In this document: piece by piece, positions 463 through 64,000 of the stretch
How positions within the stretch are numbered: position 1 is the stretch's first letter
Layout of the letters: each line of letters opens with the position of its first letter
From: Candidatus Egaibacter danicus
Lineage (GTDB): Bacteria > Pseudomonadota > Gammaproteobacteria > Burkholderiales > Burkholderiaceae_C
Direction: 5' to 3'
Length of the DNA stretch: 64,000 nucleotides
Assembly: GCA_016707075.1 (NCBI GenBank)
Contig: JADJII010000002.1
Location: forward strand, 261,082-325,081
Translations under genes and position numbers: made by a program
Notes under the pieces: model-generated
Databases searched by the model: none
Told to the model about the DNA's origin: nothing
Seen by the model: only the letters and a program-made list of their open reading frames with translations

Positions 463-1814
463 ACTATCAAGAACGACTCAACCGGGCTATTCCGGGTGGT
501 GCTCATACTTACTCTCGCGGTGCGGACCAATACCCTTCCAATGCACCACAAATTCTGGATCGTGGTCTGGGCGCTTATGTGTGGGCCCCTGATGGAACTC
601 GTTATTTGGACTATGGAATGGCGCTGCGGGCAGTGACTCTTGGCTACGCCGATCCTCGCGTCAATGCGGCTGCATTTCGAGAAATTGAAAAAGGCAACAA
701 TCTAACGCGTGCTTCGGAAACAGAATTGCTCGCCGCTGAGTTACTCATTGATTTGATACCAAGCGCAGAAATGGTCAAATTTGCCAAGAACGGATCCAAT
801 GTAACAACCGCGGCGGTAAAGATTGCACGTGCCTTCACCGGTCGTCGTTATGTGTGCATACCTCGACAGCAACCATTCTTTTCCTTTGACGATTGGTTCA
901 TAGGCACGACGTCCATACAACGTGGCATTCCTACAGATCATGCAGCAACTACCCTTGTGTTTGATTACAACGACTTGCCATCACTCCAAGCGTTGTTTGA
1001 TGCGTACCCTGATGAAATCGCCGCGGTCATGCTGGAGCCGGCTACGACTCTAGTTCCCTGTGATGCGGGATGCACCGCCGAGCTGAGCCATGACACTAAT
1101 TGCGCAAGCTGCCCGAACCATGACAAGAATTTTCTACAACGAGTCCAGAAGCTGTGCCGTCAGAACGGCTCTTTGTTCATTCTTGATGAAATGATTACGG
1201 GCTTCAGATGGAACCTTGCGGGTGCGCAGAACTATTTTGGCGTGCAACCAGACTTGTCAACCTTTGGCAAGGGTATGGCCAATGGATTTTCTGTGGCCGC
1301 TGTCACGGGGCGCCGCGAGGTAATGGAGGTCGGCAGTATTGACAAACCAGGAGCGGAACGGACCTTTTTGCTGTCTACCACCCATGGTGGGGAGATGTGT
1401 GGTTTGGGGGCCTTTATAGAAACGGTCTCCATTTATCGTGAGAAAGACGTCTGCCAACACATGTGGAAATACGGGCAGCGTCTGAAAGATGGCCTGACTG
1501 AGGTGGCTCGTGAGTGTGGGGTTGATAAGCACTTTGTCATGGACGGACCTGCTATCAGCCTGAACTATCTGACCAAAGATGCAACGGGCGCAATGTCCAC
1601 AAAGTTCAGAACTTTATTTTCGCAAGAAATGATCCGGTGCGGAGTCCTGATGCCCTGGATTGCTGTGAGTTATTCGCATGGAGACAATGAGTTGGATCAG
1701 ACGCTTACGGCCGCACGTAAGGCGCTGACGGTTTATGCACAGGCGCTGACGGATGGGGTCGAGAAATACCTCATTGGTCCGGAAATCCGTCCGGTATTTA
1801 GAAAATTCAATTGA
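459..1814 (+). CDS. Class III PLP aminotransferase (glutamate-1-semialdehyde aminomutase-like) in a sugar-modification context
   Basis: 451-aa ORF with IPGGAHTYSRG near the N-terminus, plus DEMITGFR and FGKGMANGF (PLP-lysine region), typical of HemL-like class III enzymes. Confidence 0.8.
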   Translation: MNYQERLNRAIPGGAHTYSRGADQYPSNAPQILDRGLGAYVWAPDGTRYLDYGMALRAVTLGYADPRVNAAAFREIEKGNNLTRASETELLAAELLIDLIPSAEMVKFAKNGSNVTTAAVKIARAFTGRRYVCIPRQQPFFSFDDWFIGTTSIQRGIPTDHAATTLVFDYNDLPSLQALFDAYPDEIAAVMLEPATTLVPCDAGCTAELSHDTNCASCPNHDKNFLQRVQKLCRQNGSLFILDEMITGFRWNLAGAQNYFGVQPDLSTFGKGMANGFSVAAVTGRREVMEVGSIDKPGAERTFLLSTTHGGEMCGLGAFIETVSIYREKDVCQHMWKYGQRLKDGLTEVARECGVDKHFVMDGPAISLNYLTKDATGAMSTKFRTLFSQEMIRCGVLMPWIAVSYSHGDNELDQTLTAARKALTVYAQALTDGVEKYLIGPEIRPVFRKFN

Positions 1815-1835
1815 GGCCAGGCAACAAGTGTCAAC

Positions 1836-2639
1836 ATGACTACGATCACTAAACTAATGGATCTCAAAGGGCGGACGGCGTTGATTACTGGTGCGGCCGG
1901 TGGGTTAGGTCGCATAGTCGCGGAGACGCTAGCCGAGCTGGGGGCAGATTTGATATTGGTCGATCGCCCGGGATCAAATCTTCAGCAGTGTACAGAGCAG
2001 CTTGGGCTGCGTTGGGGGGTGCATGTTCGGGATATCTTCTGTGATCTCGAGCAGTCCAACCAGCGACAGCAGTTGATTGAGCAAGTCAAGGCCATGAAGT
2101 CGGGCCTGAATATCTTAGTCAACAATGCTGCCTTCGTTGGCACTTCAGAACTTAAGGGTTGGTCTGTACCCTTTGAACAGCAGAGCGTGGATACATGGCG
2201 TAGAGCGGTCGAGGTGAACCTGACAGCAGTGTTTGAATTGACCCAAGGGTTCTCCTCTGATCTGAGCGTTGCAAGGGGAGGGTGCATCATCAATATCGCT
2301 TCCATCTATGGCGAATTCGGACCTGACTGGCGGCTTTATGAAGGAACCCAGATGGGCAATCCAGCTGCTTATGGTGCTTCCAAAGGAGGGCTAATTCAGT
2401 TCACACGCTGGCTGTCTACGACGTTGGCCCCCGCAGTGCGCGCAAATTGTATTTCTCCGGGTGGGATCAGTCGTGGACAAAGTGAGGCATTTGTCGCGCG
2501 CTATGTAGAGCGTACGCCTCTTGGGCGTATGGCGACAGAAGAGGATTTCCGCGGCGCAGTTGCATATCTGGCAAGCGATCTTTCAAGCTACGTAACTGGA
2601 CATAACCTGTCTGTGGACGGGGGCTGGGGAATTTGGTGA
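1836..2639 (+). CDS. Short-chain dehydrogenase/reductase (SDR)
   Basis: TGAAGGLG Rossmann motif, NNAA, and Y-x3-K (AAYGASKGG). Confidence 0.85.
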   Translation: MTTITKLMDLKGRTALITGAAGGLGRIVAETLAELGADLILVDRPGSNLQQCTEQLGLRWGVHVRDIFCDLEQSNQRQQLIEQVKAMKSGLNILVNNAAFVGTSELKGWSVPFEQQSVDTWRRAVEVNLTAVFELTQGFSSDLSVARGGCIINIASIYGEFGPDWRLYEGTQMGNPAAYGASKGGLIQFTRWLSTTLAPAVRANCISPGGISRGQSEAFVARYVERTPLGRMATEEDFRGAVAYLASDLSSYVTGHNLSVDGGWGIW

Positions 2640-2841
2640 TTGTCACCCCACACTTTATTAGTGAATCATAAGGTGGCTAGACGGAATTGGGAACCTTACT
2701 TAGTTGATCCAGCATTGAACTCGTGGACGGGTAAATTTCTTAAATAAGCTGCGTGTGGTTGTGGTGAGCTTCCAGCACCACTTTTTGAAGATTATTCAGA
2801 TAGTGCCGCAAACAAAGCTTCCCCTACAAGTGAGAATACTT

Positions 2842-3608
2842 ATGAATAATGACGAGCCGCAAGAAATTCGCCGACAACGCATCGATGAATGGGAAAATCT
2901 AGACGAAAATGGGTATAGGTATCACAAATCGCAATGGGACACGCCAAAGCAAAGCACTATTGCATTTGAAAATTTCGTCTCTAAGAACATATCAAAATCG
3001 ACTCAAATAATTGATATGGGTGCTGGCGCTGGCGCGTCTACAGCTTATCTCGCGAGTAAACATAGATCTGTTCACTTTACCTGTTTTGATTACTCAAATG
3101 AATTGACTGCACTAGGCAGAAAAATTGCTCAAGATAAGAGAATCACAAATCTAACCTTTAACCAAGGTGACTGGTTCAATTTAAATCAAACAAACCAATT
3201 TGACGGTTGTATAAGTCTCCAAACCTTGAGCTGGCTACCCGACTATGAAGCTGCACTCCTTGAGATATTCAAGAAAATCAATCCAACGTGGATTGGTCTA
3301 ACAAGTCTCTTCTACGAAGGGACATTACTTGCCGCATCGAAGTTGAGGAGCATGAAAAACAAAAAAGCTTTTACAACGTCTATTCTCTACCAGCTATCAG
3401 CAGACTTTGCGAAAGAGAAGGATACGTTTTGGTAAAAAGCTCACCTTTTGTAATTGATATCGACTTAGCTAAACCAAAAAATTTGAATGTGATGGGGACA
3501 TACACGAGGGAAGTCGTGACGAACAATGCCGACACGGTTGAGCGAATTCAAATAAGCGGCCCACTGCTAATGAACTGGTATATGCTTTTGATTGAAAAGA
3601 TTAGTTGA
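2842..3608 (+). pseudogene. Class I SAM-dependent methyltransferase with the reading frame broken once near 3319-3321
   Basis: The N-terminal part (frame of ORF 2755..3435, ATG at 2842) carries motif I DMGAGAGAS. The C-terminal part continues in ORF 3288..3608 (..FYNVYSLPAISRLCEREGYVLV..). One extra G in the GGG run at 3319-3321 would join ..LFYEG to DITCRIEVEE... Confidence 0.6.
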
Positions 3609-3651
3609 GTGCGATAAATTACTAAACGCGTGAATACTCAAAAGTGACGCT

Positions 3652-4659
3652 ATGCGGCAATTCTTAAAATCAATTCTTACCACTCTTTCATCTCACTCGT
3701 TGTTGCGGCGGCTGGTGCCCTTCCTCGCTGACTGGCATGCGGGGTTCGTGCTCGGTGATTCGACAAAACAGGCAGTTGTAGCGTCCTCATATCTCAGACT
3801 CAAGCGTGCTTTTTCTTTTTGGCGCTGGGCTCCACCTAAGTACACAGGAGGAGCCGTACTCAACTTATTGGGAATACAGATAGTTCGGTATATCATTTAC
3901 AACTTGCGATATTTGGTTCGACCAAATCGGGGCGTGCTCGGTGCTGACTGCGGGCGGACCGGCATCGTTCAAGTGGCAAATCTTTTCAATTCGTCCATTG
4001 TTGATGAGGTGAGAGAATTCTACTTATCCAACCTGGCGGACGCTCAACGCCATTTTAATGACTTCTCAGAGTTGGTAATATGCAATACCAATGGGCCGGT
4101 GAAATCTGATGTTGCTTACAAGGCCGTTGTCGACCGGTTGTTGATTCAGTGCGGGCTTTCGGCCAAAGGGCGTGAACTTACTGGGGTAGATCTTCGTATA
4201 TATCCGTTTATCGCGATTCTCCACTACAAATCGTTTGTAGATTGCTCAAGCCAGAGCGATGGCCAGAATACGCCACATACCGACGTTTTTTACCCCTCTT
4301 TCAAGCTATTTGTCTATCTAAACGAGGTAGATGAACAGAATGGCGCCTTTCACTATCTTCTGGGTAGTCACAAATTTTCGCTTCGCAATGCGATAAATGC
4401 CTACAAAAATTCCCTTCAATATTATTTCCAAGGCGGCAAGCGCCAGCTTTATCCAGTGGATGCTTCTGCTGGCATGCAAGGCGGGGGTCTTCGATGGTTC
4501 CCTGTCTGCGGTCATCCGGGGGATGGAGTTTTTTTCAATGTGCAAGGTGTGCATAAGCGGGGCGATTTCCTGAAAGACCAATACCGCGAACGCCTAGTGC
4601 TTCTGGTGGATTTCCGGCAGGCGGAGGTTCCCATCCAGGAGCTTGCAGCCAATGTGTAG
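3652..4659 (+). CDS. Fe(II)/2-oxoglutarate dioxygenase-like protein (PhyH-like)
   Basis: PHTDVFYPSFKLFVYLNEVDEQNGAFHYLLGSHKF contains an H-x-D facial triad followed by a ..NG..GSH.. signature, with a distal His in GVHKRGD. Lies in the AT-rich segment. Confidence 0.5.
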   Translation: MRQFLKSILTTLSSHSLLRRLVPFLADWHAGFVLGDSTKQAVVASSYLRLKRAFSFWRWAPPKYTGGAVLNLLGIQIVRYIIYNLRYLVRPNRGVLGADCGRTGIVQVANLFNSSIVDEVREFYLSNLADAQRHFNDFSELVICNTNGPVKSDVAYKAVVDRLLIQCGLSAKGRELTGVDLRIYPFIAILHYKSFVDCSSQSDGQNTPHTDVFYPSFKLFVYLNEVDEQNGAFHYLLGSHKFSLRNAINAYKNSLQYYFQGGKRQLYPVDASAGMQGGGLRWFPVCGHPGDGVFFNVQGVHKRGDFLKDQYRERLVLLVDFRQAEVPIQELAANV

Positions 4660-61753: not shown

Positions 61754-61954
61754 ATGGAAACACCAAGACTCCGGGTCGGGAAACCGATCTCACCCGAGCA
61801 GTTCGATGAATTGACCGACGAGCAACTGGCCCGTCTGGTGCCCCGCGCCTACCGCGAGTTTTTCCCTGGCAAGGACTTCTGTGCCGACGGCTATTTCTAC
61901 CTGCACGACGGCAATGCGTGGAGCTTCTACAAGGGCGGGTTTGTGGACGACTGA
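61754..61954 (+). CDS. Hypothetical 66-aa protein
   Basis: METPRLRVGKPISPEQFDELTDEQLARLVPRAYREFFPGKDFCADGYFYLHDGNAWSFYKGGFVDD is non-repetitive and looks protein-like. It is the only part of shadow ORF 60959..61954 not antisense to the MFS gene. Confidence 0.4.
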   Translation: METPRLRVGKPISPEQFDELTDEQLARLVPRAYREFFPGKDFCADGYFYLHDGNAWSFYKGGFVDD

Positions 61955-63591
61955 ATCCGCTGCACATGCGCCAGCAGCGAGCGTTTGGCGACCGGCCACA
62001 TGCGCGGTGGTACGTCGTCATAGGCTTTTGAAACCCAGTCGTCCATGGTGCCGTCCGGCAGGGCCTGCATCACCCGCAGAATCTTGGCTTCGCGCTTCAG
62101 GCGGTGGGCTTTGAGGTGGGCGATAGCGTCGCTAGCTCGGGCCAGCGCGTAGCCGTGGGCGGGCAGGATGAAATCGATGTGGTGTGCTTCGCAGGCCGCG
62201 GTCAGGATATCCAGCGACGTCAGGTAATCGGTCATGTCGCCATCGGGTGGGTCGATCACGGTGGTGCTGCCGTTCAGGATGTGGTCGCCGCTGAACAGCA
62301 GGCCATCTTCCAGCAACACCAGGCACAGGTGGTTGGCGGCATGGCCCGGGGTGTAAATAACCTTTAAAGTATGAGCCAAATCGGCATCTAGCCCTCGTCC
62401 ATTATGCGTTAGTAGCTCCTGATTTTGTAGCGTTCTGTCGGGCGTGAACTCACTGGCCGCACGGGATGTGGGAGCGCTGGGCAGGCCCAAGATGGGCGGC
62501 TGGGGGTGGCCGTTTTTCACGCACAGCGCCTGCAGCGGCCGCGCGCCGGGCGAGTGGTCCGGATGCGAATGGGTGCAGACAATCTGGTGGATGTCGCCAC
62601 CCGCTGCGCGCCACAGCTTTTCAATGTGCTCGGGGTCGGCTGGGCCGGGGTCGATCACGGTGTAGCCAGTGTTGGGGTCACCCACCAGGTAGCTGTTGGT
62701 GCCGGGGCCGGTCATCGCGCCGGGGTTGGGCGCGGTCAGCCGCATCACGTTGCGCAGCAGTTGCACGGGCTGTTCGGTCTGCCAGTCCAGGTGGTGCACG
62801 ATCTGCCCGTCGGGCGACACCAGCTCCAGCTCGCCATACGGATGCTCGTGCTCCATGTAGCGCGCCTCCCTGCCCGCCAGAAACCCGGCGCGCGGGCAGC
62901 TGGTCCACAGTGGCTGCTCGGTGGCCGCACAGGCCTGCAGCACGGCGTCCACGGTGGCAAAGGATTGCAGGCGCTCCAGCGTGCGGATGGTGGGAAAAAT
63001 GATGAAGAAGTTGCCTGCCTCGTGCCGGGCCAGCGCATCTGCCGGGCGCACCCACACGGGCTCGAACTGCTCGGACTCGTCGGCCACCGGCGTCTGCCCT
63101 TCGGGCATGCGCGCCACCAGAAACGGCACGTCAAAACGGCGCGACAGGTCGCGGTCGGTGATCCAGTGCGCCAGCACAAACACCTCGTCAGCGCACAGCG
63201 TCAGGCCACGCGCCTTGCATTGGGCGGCGAACGGCGCCTTGCGGTCCAGCGCAGCAATGTCGGCGGTGGTGGGCGATGTGCCGTCCGCGTGGCGGGCCAG
63301 CAGCACGCCCAGCTCTTCAAAACTCTCGCGGATGGCCGCGATGGCTTGTGTGAGGTGCAGGTCGCTTTGGGTGGCGCGTCTTGTCGATTGCGCATGACTG
63401 GTTGCGTCGGCTGCGTCCACACCGCCACCGGGGAAGACGTAGGCACCGGGCGCGAAGCTGGCTGTCGTCGAGCGACGGGTCATCAGGACCTCGATGCCTT
63501 GCGGACTGTCGCGCAGCAGGAGGACCGTTGCGGCTGGGCGGGTGGCAACCGGTTCGCGCTGGGTGTGGAGGAGTTGGGATATTCTGACCAT
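61927..63591 (-). CDS. Nudix hydrolase - metallo-beta-lactamase-fold fusion protein
   Basis: N-terminal Nudix box ..FPGGGVD(x18)..AIAAIRESFEELGVLL... C-terminal MBL motifs THSHPDHSPGA, TPGHAANH, FSGDH, LPAHG. Start at ATG 63591. Confidence 0.75.
   Translation of the reverse strand: MVRISQLLHTQREPVATRPAATVLLLRDSPQGIEVLMTRRSTTASFAPGAYVFPGGGVDAADATSHAQSTRRATQSDLHLTQAIAAIRESFEELGVLLARHADGTSPTTADIAALDRKAPFAAQCKARGLTLCADEVFVLAHWITDRDLSRRFDVPFLVARMPEGQTPVADESEQFEPVWVRPADALARHEAGNFFIIFPTIRTLERLQSFATVDAVLQACAATEQPLWTSCPRAGFLAGREARYMEHEHPYGELELVSPDGQIVHHLDWQTEQPVQLLRNVMRLTAPNPGAMTGPGTNSYLVGDPNTGYTVIDPGPADPEHIEKLWRAAGGDIHQIVCTHSHPDHSPGARPLQALCVKNGHPQPPILGLPSAPTSRAASEFTPDRTLQNQELLTHNGRGLDADLAHTLKVIYTPGHAANHLCLVLLEDGLLFSGDHILNGSTTVIDPPDGDMTDYLTSLDILTAACEAHHIDFILPAHGYALARASDAIAHLKAHRLKREAKILRVMQALPDGTMDDWVSKAYDDVPPRMWPVAKRSLLAHVQRIQSSTNPPL
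62353..62436 (+). repeat. Dispersed AT-rich repeat, copy D, embedded in-frame (antisense) in the MBL domain
   Basis: gagccaaatcggcatctagccctcgtccattatgcgttagtagctcctgattttgtagcg aligns colinearly with copies A and B (12-mer tctagccctcgt identical to A). Translated on the minus strand as TLQNQELLTHNGRGLDADLAHTLKVIY. Confidence 0.6.
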
Positions 63592-63626
63592 TTGGTGATT
63601 TTGCACTCCGTGCAGGGGTTTGTTTT

Positions 63627-63980
63627 CCCCACTCACTCCCCCAGCTCCTCTCCCGCCCCGCCGGGCGGAAGAGGGGAGCCTTATTTGGTTGTTGGTGTCT
63701 TGTTACGGAAATATTGGGGAAGATCCCCACTGTTTTTTTGAGTGGCAAGGCTTCAGGTGTTGAGTTCCGAGCGCCGGAGGCGCAACGGTTTGCGGCTGTT
63801 TCAACTCCCCTTCAACCCGGGCCGCCTCCGGCGCTCGGAACTAGTACCCGGAAACCTCAACACACCAAGAGCAGTGGTGACCTCTCCCGATATTTCCCCA
63901 TCCGGCGCGCAGAAGCAAAATCAAAGGCTCCCTCTTCCGCCCGGCGGGGCGGGAGAGGGCGGGGGGAGTGAGTGGGGGCT
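63627..63980. repeat. Composite palindrome of about 350 bp (possible MITE-like or structured element)
   Basis: Outer arms ccccactcactccccc..ctctcccgccccgccgggcggaagagg..gagcc (63627-63680) match their reverse complement at 63925-63980. The middle block ggaaatat.ggg..cc.cactg is mirrored. The inner perfect 19-bp stem is 63764-63782 / 63823-63841, around a 40-nt loop. Confidence 0.8.
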
Positions 63981-64000
63981 ACAAAAGCAAGTAAACAAGC

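Follow-up and report, generated by a model that had tools for sequence, protein, structure and literature searches.

An imperfect palindrome next to dapF in Candidatus Egaibacter danicus belongs to an intergenic repeat family of the Comamonadaceae and is probably an ancient copy of an ERIC- or MITE-like element

The ERIC or IRU elements of the Enterobacteriaceae are imperfect intergenic palindromes of 127 bp, which occur at low to moderate copy number and have no known transposase. Correia or NEMIS elements, the miniature inverted-repeat transposable elements (MITEs) of Neisseria, number in the hundreds and are characterized by repeats of 26 bp, an IHF site and a duplication of TA. Mobile insertion cassettes (MICs) and the Tn3-derived TIMEs have ends in common with a known insertion sequence (IS) or transposon and make duplications. 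Closer to the bacterium studied here, the GC-rich intergenic repeat BRE of Bordetella and Comamonadaceae, reported in Rhodoferax, Polaromonas and Delftia, is built from a unit of about 90 bp (TTTTTTTGGCCGCGGGCCGCCCAAGGCAAAAAAGCCCCC...) arranged in tandem (PMC3110155). We have analysed a palindrome situated at the right end of a 64,000-nt stretch of the Candidatus Egaibacter danicus genome, hereafter the window (contig JADJII010000002.1, or C2, positions 261082-325081; the genome is labelled G000), whose coordinates are counted from its first nucleotide. This palindrome is one member of an intergenic repeat family of Comamonadaceae that, as far as we could find, had not been described, and whose hosts are Rhodoferax, Curvibacter, Hylemonella, Polaromonas and their relatives. 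The best-supported comparison would place the family closest, in its behaviour, to ERIC and to MITE or mobile-insertion-cassette elements. With a probability of about 0.6, we consider the window palindrome to be a cargo-less, anciently fixed copy of this non-autonomous MITE/ERIC-like family.

The initial annotation had reported that positions 63627-63980 fold back on themselves in three tiers. A repeat finder and inspection of the sequence located all of them where they had been placed: outer arms (63647-63675 / 63930-63958, 29 nt with 100% complementarity, extended by 63619-63645 / 63959-63985, 27 nt at 85%), a mirrored middle block and, exactly as claimed, a perfect 19-bp inner stem around a 40-nt loop. 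Alignment of the second genomic copy and of two copies from a sister species gave slightly wider limits for the whole element, 63616-63988 or 373 bp, with arms extended to about 165 nt each. Each outer arm does contain a GC hairpin of its own, with a CGCC/GGCG loop and a stem that, at 12-14 bp, is longer than first stated. The fold of a 401-nt stretch was calculated at -253.2 kcal/mol, compared to -155.7 ± 6.4 kcal/mol for dinucleotide shuffles (z = -15.3), and the opposite strand folds at -244.4 kcal/mol (z = -14.8). The two arms of one copy are only 70-80% identical, so that the palindrome is imperfect. Its features are listed below with their strand, where one can be assigned.

63616-63988, no strand: whole palindromic element, composed of an A-type arm, a 40-nt loop and a B-type arm; fold z = -15
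63616-63693, plus strand: left end module with its C-rich strand on plus; GGGTTTGTTTT edge, CCCCACTCACTCCCCC tract, GC hairpin and AGCCTTATTTGG tail
63645-63676, plus strand: local GC hairpin inside the left module, with stem CCTCTCCCGCCC / GGGCGGAAGAGG around a CGCC loop and a single conserved C.A mismatch
63707-63737, no strand: left half of the middle block, pairing with 63867-63897 (inverted repeat, 31 nt, 77%)
63715-63739, plus strand: small terminator-like hairpin and T-run (TGGGGAAGATCCCCA CTGTTTTTTT), in the A-type arm only; found by consensus scan in both genomic copies
63764-63782, no strand: left half of the inner stem, perfect 19 bp with 63823-63841
63783-63822, no strand: central loop, 40 nt, inverted relative to the arms at both loci of the sister species
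63823-63841, no strand: right half of the inner stem, perfect 19 bp with 63764-63782
63867-63897, no strand: right half of the middle block, pairing with 63707-63737
63911-63988, minus strand: right end module, B-type, with its G-rich strand on plus; degenerate over its outermost 10 nt, with GCTACAAAAGC in place of GAAAACAAACCC
63930-63959, plus strand: local GC hairpin inside the right module, reading CCCTCTTCCGCCC GGCG GGGCGGGAGAGGG and containing a T.G wobble on the plus strand
63946-63966, plus strand: GGGGCGGGAGAGGGCGGGGGG, a canonical G-quadruplex motif located on the G-rich strand by a regular-expression scan

The genome contains exactly two copies of the element. The search for further copies returned a single one besides that of the window, 87% identical, on contig C4 (323128-323488) between the 3' ends of folK and of a ridA-like gene. 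Both loci are also occupied in the sister species (G003), by one full copy each, and a third species has at least one, the ridA copy, located at a contig end. Copies were found in 4 of 41 relatives, and a 74-nt probe of the element end matched 36 of the 401 genomes of the family. At a larger scale, an exact 24-mer of the hairpin module occurs in at least 119 contigs, all Comamonadaceae-like and labelled Rhodoferax, Curvibacter, Hylemonella, Polaromonas or unnamed Comamonadaceae/Burkholderiales, while a second module motif was present in a further 89 metagenome contigs. The highest module counts were 24 (G375) and 19 (the complete genome G197); in G009, a member of another genus, the outer 70 nt recur at about 10 places with differing interiors. 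No match to the element was found in 16 genomes from other families of the order, or by blastn in plasmids or phages, a result that also led us to reject a plasmid or phage origin. The repeat family was not found in Rfam or in the open literature searched by taxon, keyword and module sequence. BRE likewise is an intergenic GC-rich repeat of Comamonadaceae genera; its sequence is unrelated, however, its published copies having no blocks in common with the module, and it is arranged in tandem whereas the modules described here form inverted pairs (PMC3110155). The family thus adds to the repeats of Comamonadaceae, environmental and host-associated bacteria whose intergenic repeats have been little studied.

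Library preparation or assembly errors can create palindromes, for instance as fold-back chimeras, and the possibility had been raised that this one was unique or an assembly artefact. The second genomic copy shows that it is not unique. The imperfection of the arms, together with recurrence in independent assemblies, excludes an artefact, whose probability we regard as practically nil: the same imperfect palindrome is found at the same two loci in an independently assembled genome, the family occurs in more than 100 other assemblies, and the window copy lies inside a 474-kb contig.

Comparison of 215 instances revealed that the conserved unit of the family is an end module of about 75-110 nt. 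Read inward, this module starts with a T-rich edge (GGGTTTGTTTT in the sub-family of the window), followed by a tract CCCCACTCAC(T/A)CCCCC, a GC stem of 13-15 bp with loop CGCC, and AGCC..ATTTG(G/A)CC; in one large sub-family it additionally contains AGCCAACAGCCNTATTTGGCCGCGTGTTTGAAC. The left end module of the window is 97% identical to the family consensus. Modules were found as 94 inverted pairs, and 80 unique short elements measure 230-536 bp, mostly 230-465 bp. A first model scored 62 modules as solo, some of which proved to have degenerate partners under a more sensitive module model; there are nonetheless genuine solo modules, and relic arms as well. The interior lacks conservation: it may be a mere loop of 40 nt or as much as 3 kb of DNA with accessory genes, and the share of it that pairs across the centre ranges from 0 to 0.76 among family members, which indicates that the full three-tier palindrome belongs to the sub-family of the window and not to the family as a whole. 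Within this sub-family the arms are of two types, A and B, again 70-80% identical to each other, and the differences between them are conserved between copies and species. It is the end modules alone that selection has kept, the interior being free. An array of five direct tandem modules (units of 234-370 bp) followed by an inverted one was observed in a metagenome contig (L252 10245-11700), where it adjoins a (TTCAAGA)n microsatellite.

The covariation of the hairpin was examined on 203 copies representing 56 variants. The stem changes by paired substitutions in many lineages, with variants such as CTCCCGCCC/GGGCGGAAG, CTCTCGCCC/GGGCGAAAG, TTCCACCCC/GGGGTGGAA, CTTCACCCC/GGGGTGAAG and others, and only two copies depart from the CGCC loop. 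Two imperfections recur in the stem; on the C-rich strand they read C.A or A.C, and hence G.T on the G-rich strand, suggesting that the hairpin matters on the latter; because all recurrent imperfections are of this kind, it is probably read as single-stranded DNA on that strand. A canonical G-quadruplex motif is present on this G-rich, outward-reading strand in 202 of the 215 modules, compared to about 11 in shuffled sequences (about 18-fold), which we note purely as an observation. A hairpin that covaries around a near-invariant loop, with recurrent imperfections that are G.T on one strand, goes beyond what is expected of a routine MITE.

The degree of conservation of the end modules goes beyond it as well. 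When G000 is compared with Hylemonella, Curvibacter and G009, the 75-nt modules are 0.86-0.92 identical and whole elements 0.72-0.80. In the same genus comparisons dapF, the adjacent essential gene, is 0.82-0.86 identical at codon positions 1+2 and 0.48-0.55 at position 3, so that from genus to genus the ends of the element have changed less than even codon positions 1 and 2 of its neighbour. Between G000 and G003 identity is 0.84-0.93 in the arms; at third codon positions it is 0.78-0.83 in three flanking genes and 0.51 in the fourth, folK. Both G000 copies predate the split from G003 and are not recent jumps. The paralogs are 0.87 (G000) and 0.91 (G003) identical, the orthologs 0.85 and 0.80. 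The central loop has the same orientation in both G000 copies and the opposite one in both G003 copies, and the G003 loops (L007, L010) match those of G000 solely as reverse complements. Paralogs that are closer than orthologs, together with a loop orientation common within each genome, point to exchange between copies and to at least one loop flip. The copies of one genome are thus homogenised, a pattern that suggests gene conversion and a flipping of the loop between the arms.

We then considered to which class of elements the family is most similar. As in a MITE, the ends are terminal inverted repeats, the end modules being inverted copies of each other here as in the 94 pairs, and the element is small (373 bp), non-coding, without any conserved open reading frame (ORF), and dispersed, with 2 copies in this genome and up to 24 modules in relatives. 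As with ERIC, it is an imperfect palindrome conserved across genera of one family and retained at orthologous intergenic sites. The earlier proposal of a MITE with long terminal inverted repeats is thus upheld with respect to a dispersed non-coding family with inverted ends; the target-site duplication and the autonomous partner that would complete it were not found, and these and several other results weigh against our preferred interpretation. No target-site duplication was detected at any offset or length in 57 elements compared to shuffled flank pairs, the few 6-8-nt flank repeats matching chance expectation, although old insertions may have lost theirs. No autonomous partner with the same ends was identified in long pairs, plasmids or phages, in a search that was not exhaustive, and none of the long pairs, all of which were inspected, contains an intact transposase or recombinase in its cargo. 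No recombinase recurs beside the elements either, since clustering of 751 neighbouring proteins returned only conserved synteny. RAYT/REPIN had to be rejected as the source: each genome has a single RAYT-like Y1 gene regardless of whether it contains the element, and this gene has no flanking modules; the IS200 copies of G375 carry their own, different hairpins. Finally, the window's genus gives no sign of recent movement, with two copies at sites that are both common to the sister species, and the depth to which fixed loci are conserved would also be in keeping with a role in the host. Empty sites, on the other hand, would fit a MITE. Such element-free sites exist in the genus G008, where Nudix-MBL and dapF are about 85 bp apart, and at folB|ttcA in G000, where the two genes overlap (ATGA, C8:178765), but the sequences compared are too diverged to fix the borders of the insertion.

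Among described systems, the elements share with ERIC an intergenic imperfect palindrome present in low to moderate copy number across the genera of one family, the persistence of orthologous sites, the existence of longer variants with internal insertions and the absence of a known transposase. They differ from ERIC in that they are three times longer, concentrate conservation in ends of 75-110 nt with a covarying GC hairpin, and have an interior that can hold genes; no sequence similarity was seen or expected, and the strand test described below gave no sign of selection at the RNA level. Like Correia elements they are intergenic, 100-400 bp long, bounded by inverted terminal repeats and able to form long hairpins, but they have ends of 75-110 nt and occur as 2-24 modules in each genome, and the search for a duplication was negative. 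The REP, BIME and REPIN sequences also have a GC hairpin whose imperfections are conserved and whose stem covaries, an arrangement in singles and inverted doublets, and a bias towards gene 3' ends; their units measure 20-40 nt as opposed to 75-110 nt here, their doublets about 100 bp as opposed to 230-465 bp, and REP reaches tens to hundreds of copies per genome as opposed to 2-24, with a RAYT-like gene that here, as noted, lacks flanking modules.

In the ERIC- and MITE-like interpretation, two inverted end modules bound an interior that is free to vary. The ends would be either recognition sites of a trans-acting enzyme or portable homology arms, and by either route the unit and the DNA between its arms could be copied or exchanged. 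The hairpin would probably be read as single-stranded DNA on the G-rich strand. At the window locus, the element would most likely be a passive passenger, able to extrude a hairpin or a cruciform. Read inward from either side, it would present a C-rich, G-poor tract, a GC hairpin and a U-rich tail, an arrangement that would form a read-through barrier between the divergent Nudix-MBL and dapF. The family would spread through a trans-acting enzyme or arm-mediated homologous exchange, and any effect of the window copy on Nudix-MBL or dapF is putative. If the ends are substrates of a dedicated enzyme, the family would represent a new route of cassette exchange.

The genes that surround the element bear on the alternative of a host function. 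The left flank of the window copy is occupied by the following gene.

61927-63591, minus strand: flanking Nudix-MBL gene, outside the element, with its start ATG at 63591 (ORF list)

Its ATG lies 24 nt from the left edge of the element, and its ortholog in G003 is 92% identical in DNA sequence. On the right, extension of the sequence beyond position 64000 showed that dapF begins 62 nt past the element, at window-equivalent position 64050, so that the window copy is located between two divergent starts. The neighbourhood formed by an MBL-type gene and dapF carries the element also in three further genera (Hylemonella, Curvibacter and G009), in which a tctC-like and a CMD-like gene converge on it; these two genes are absent in the window's genus, which left the element between the divergent starts. 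For 40 elements both neighbours could be typed: 12 have both on the plus strand (++), 12 both on the minus strand (--), 12 are in a convergent context and 4 in a divergent one. The start of the element usually lies 14-70 nt past a stop codon. With so few divergent sites (4 of the 40), and a sister copy between convergent gene ends, the palindrome is unlikely to be a promoter-specific regulator, in the sense of the cruciform regulatory region suggested initially.

Another possible host function is that of a cis-acting two-way transcription barrier or insulator that would stop read-through or protect 3' ends under host-level selection. In the inward direction, each module provides a C-rich, G-poor tract of 45 nt that resembles a Rho-loading site, ahead of the GC hairpin and U-rich tail; over the initial 47 nt of the module, C makes up 60% and G 11%. 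The A-type arm contributes its terminator-like hairpin and T-run. Convergent contexts are over-represented relative to divergent ones, positions shortly after stop codons and between the converging tctC-like and CMD-like genes would be appropriate for a barrier, and the modules are both more conserved than dapF coding positions and persistent at orthologous loci. A terminator, however, needs neither 75 nt of conserved primary sequence nor an invariant loop, and the outer stem, T-rich at 5' and A-rich at 3', is the reverse of an intrinsic terminator. Most genes and related genomes manage without the element (365 of the 401 family genomes lack it), and between divergent starts the window copy has no evident use as a terminator. 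In co-directional contexts, the sense strand was the more stably folded in only 9 of 24 cases, i.e. the better-folding strand does not track the sense of the flanking genes. We therefore hold the barrier to be an unlikely explanation, though one to be taken seriously.

A minority of module pairs enclose accessory or defence genes, nearly all of them at the folB|ttcA site. There, the same inverted arms of about 110 nt surround a cargo that changes from genome to genome, with at least six kinds observed (L084 5303-6258, L075 3046-4800, L161 72-3499, L166 6493-7218, L215, L272 and L278). It may be a UDG-like gene; an isochorismatase, with vapBC and a third arm behind it; a Sel1-trypsin protease together with a gene of unknown kind; a restriction enzyme of the methyl-directed type (E = 1e-55 in PADLOC); or unknown proteins of 156 or 188 aa. 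An HNH protein is also found among the cargo genes of module pairs. The arms at folB|ttcA stop sharply at ..AGTACACGYRC. In G009 (L202, that is G009:C4:220500-226100, positions 1545-4130), long arms of the window type enclose 2 kb of low-GC DNA (48-50%, compared to 65-68% in the flanks) coding for proteins of 221 and 374 aa, neither of which has a Pfam or PADLOC match. This cargo begins right after the inner stem GAGCGCCGGAG, at the position of the 40-nt loop of the window copy. That a single chromosomal site has the same arms around accessory or defence genes that change from strain to strain is a third property that exceeds a routine MITE. MICs and TIMEs similarly have inverted end repeats that bound nothing or a few accessory genes; here, in contrast, no parent element or duplication was found, and nearly all cargo forms are at one locus. 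As a separate observation, a 3-kb cargo between two modules of a metagenome contig (L253 3234-3827) includes a frameshifted fragment of a tyrosine-recombinase N-terminal domain, the sole recombinase-like sequence seen inside any element.

Such cargoes raise the question of a recombination or cassette-capture site, whose arms would be substrates of a putative site-specific or hairpin-recognising recombinase able to insert, exchange or invert the intervening DNA, and of which the window copy would be an empty version. Formulated for the end modules, these would be recognition sites of a trans-acting, hairpin-reading recombination system, possibly acting on single-stranded DNA, that moves or swaps gene cassettes between inverted arms. 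The variety of cargo within the same arms, the sharp arm ends, the replacement of the loop by the G009 cargo immediately after the inner stem, the inversion of the loop between species at both loci, and the conserved mismatch of the hairpin, as found in sites that are read in folded form, all are in line with this proposal. Homologous recombination through arms of about 100 bp would nevertheless yield equally sharp borders, no recombinase is linked to the elements and most elements have no cargo. Integron attC sites are similar in that single small accessory genes stand between structured repeats and that the hairpin has a conserved mismatch, but an attC identity was rejected: the RYYYAAC / GTTRRRY cores are absent from the module, its two ends lack mutual complementarity, the arms form inverted and not direct repeats, and the loci contain no integrase. 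On balance a dedicated capture system is improbable, both for the window copy and for the end modules in general. Were it real, the family would shuffle cassettes by a new system, separate from both integrons and RAYT/REPIN; the window palindrome would be the empty site of this system and folB|ttcA its hotspot for defence and accessory genes.

The stability of the fold also led us to evaluate a structured non-coding RNA gene or RNA leader transcribed from the plus strand, which folds 7-22 kcal/mol better than its complement in three of the four full copies. In addition to the fold z-score of -15, the A-to-B strand has many G.U pairs, four compensatory pairs are found among the four copies and the hairpin stems covary. 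A permissive Rfam scan, on the other hand, returned as its best match only MIR7533, a plant microRNA hairpin model, at 73.4 bits against a threshold of 230, and a consensus scan for sigma-70-type promoters gave no match inside the element. The interior is unconserved and often non-palindromic, its loop can be replaced by kilobases of cargo, and the elements occur in every orientation relative to genes, without the strand preference with respect to flanking transcription that the 9 of 24 co-directional cases could have revealed. The structured RNA envisaged in the initial annotation is thus very improbable.

The element may also affect the annotation and assembly of the genomes that contain it. 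ORFs inside it change frame and length among the four full copies and none is conserved across them; they are therefore spurious, as had been suspected for the low-complexity ORF of the window. The folK frame of G000 (L006 3445-4191, contig C4) continues for 22 codons into the sister copy (..SPTHSPNPSPAPSGGRGGL) before stopping, and the element therefore supplies both the stop codon and a low-complexity tail. It can thus seed false ORF calls. Two contigs of G375 start with a module at 134-191, and contig C2 of G004 (L184 1-31) begins 31 nt upstream of dapF. The palindrome apparently breaks short-read assemblies, and the start of the G004 contig is probably what such breakage would produce. Another hairpin family at 56.4-57.6 kb of the window was compared with the element, and any link was discarded as the sequences are unrelated.

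The immediate surroundings of the two start codons show a further feature. Five genomes have a conserved motif GATAATC(C/T)-N4-6-ATG immediately upstream of dapF (L001 1916-1933, just beyond the right end of the window; L183, L184, L185 and L188), as for a leaderless or very-short-leader mRNA, which its position would fit. In the element-free spacer of G008 the GATAATC motif is present on both strands and forms a small palindrome, and at the Nudix-MBL start of the window a CAAAAT sequence is found at a spacing equal to that of the dapF motif.

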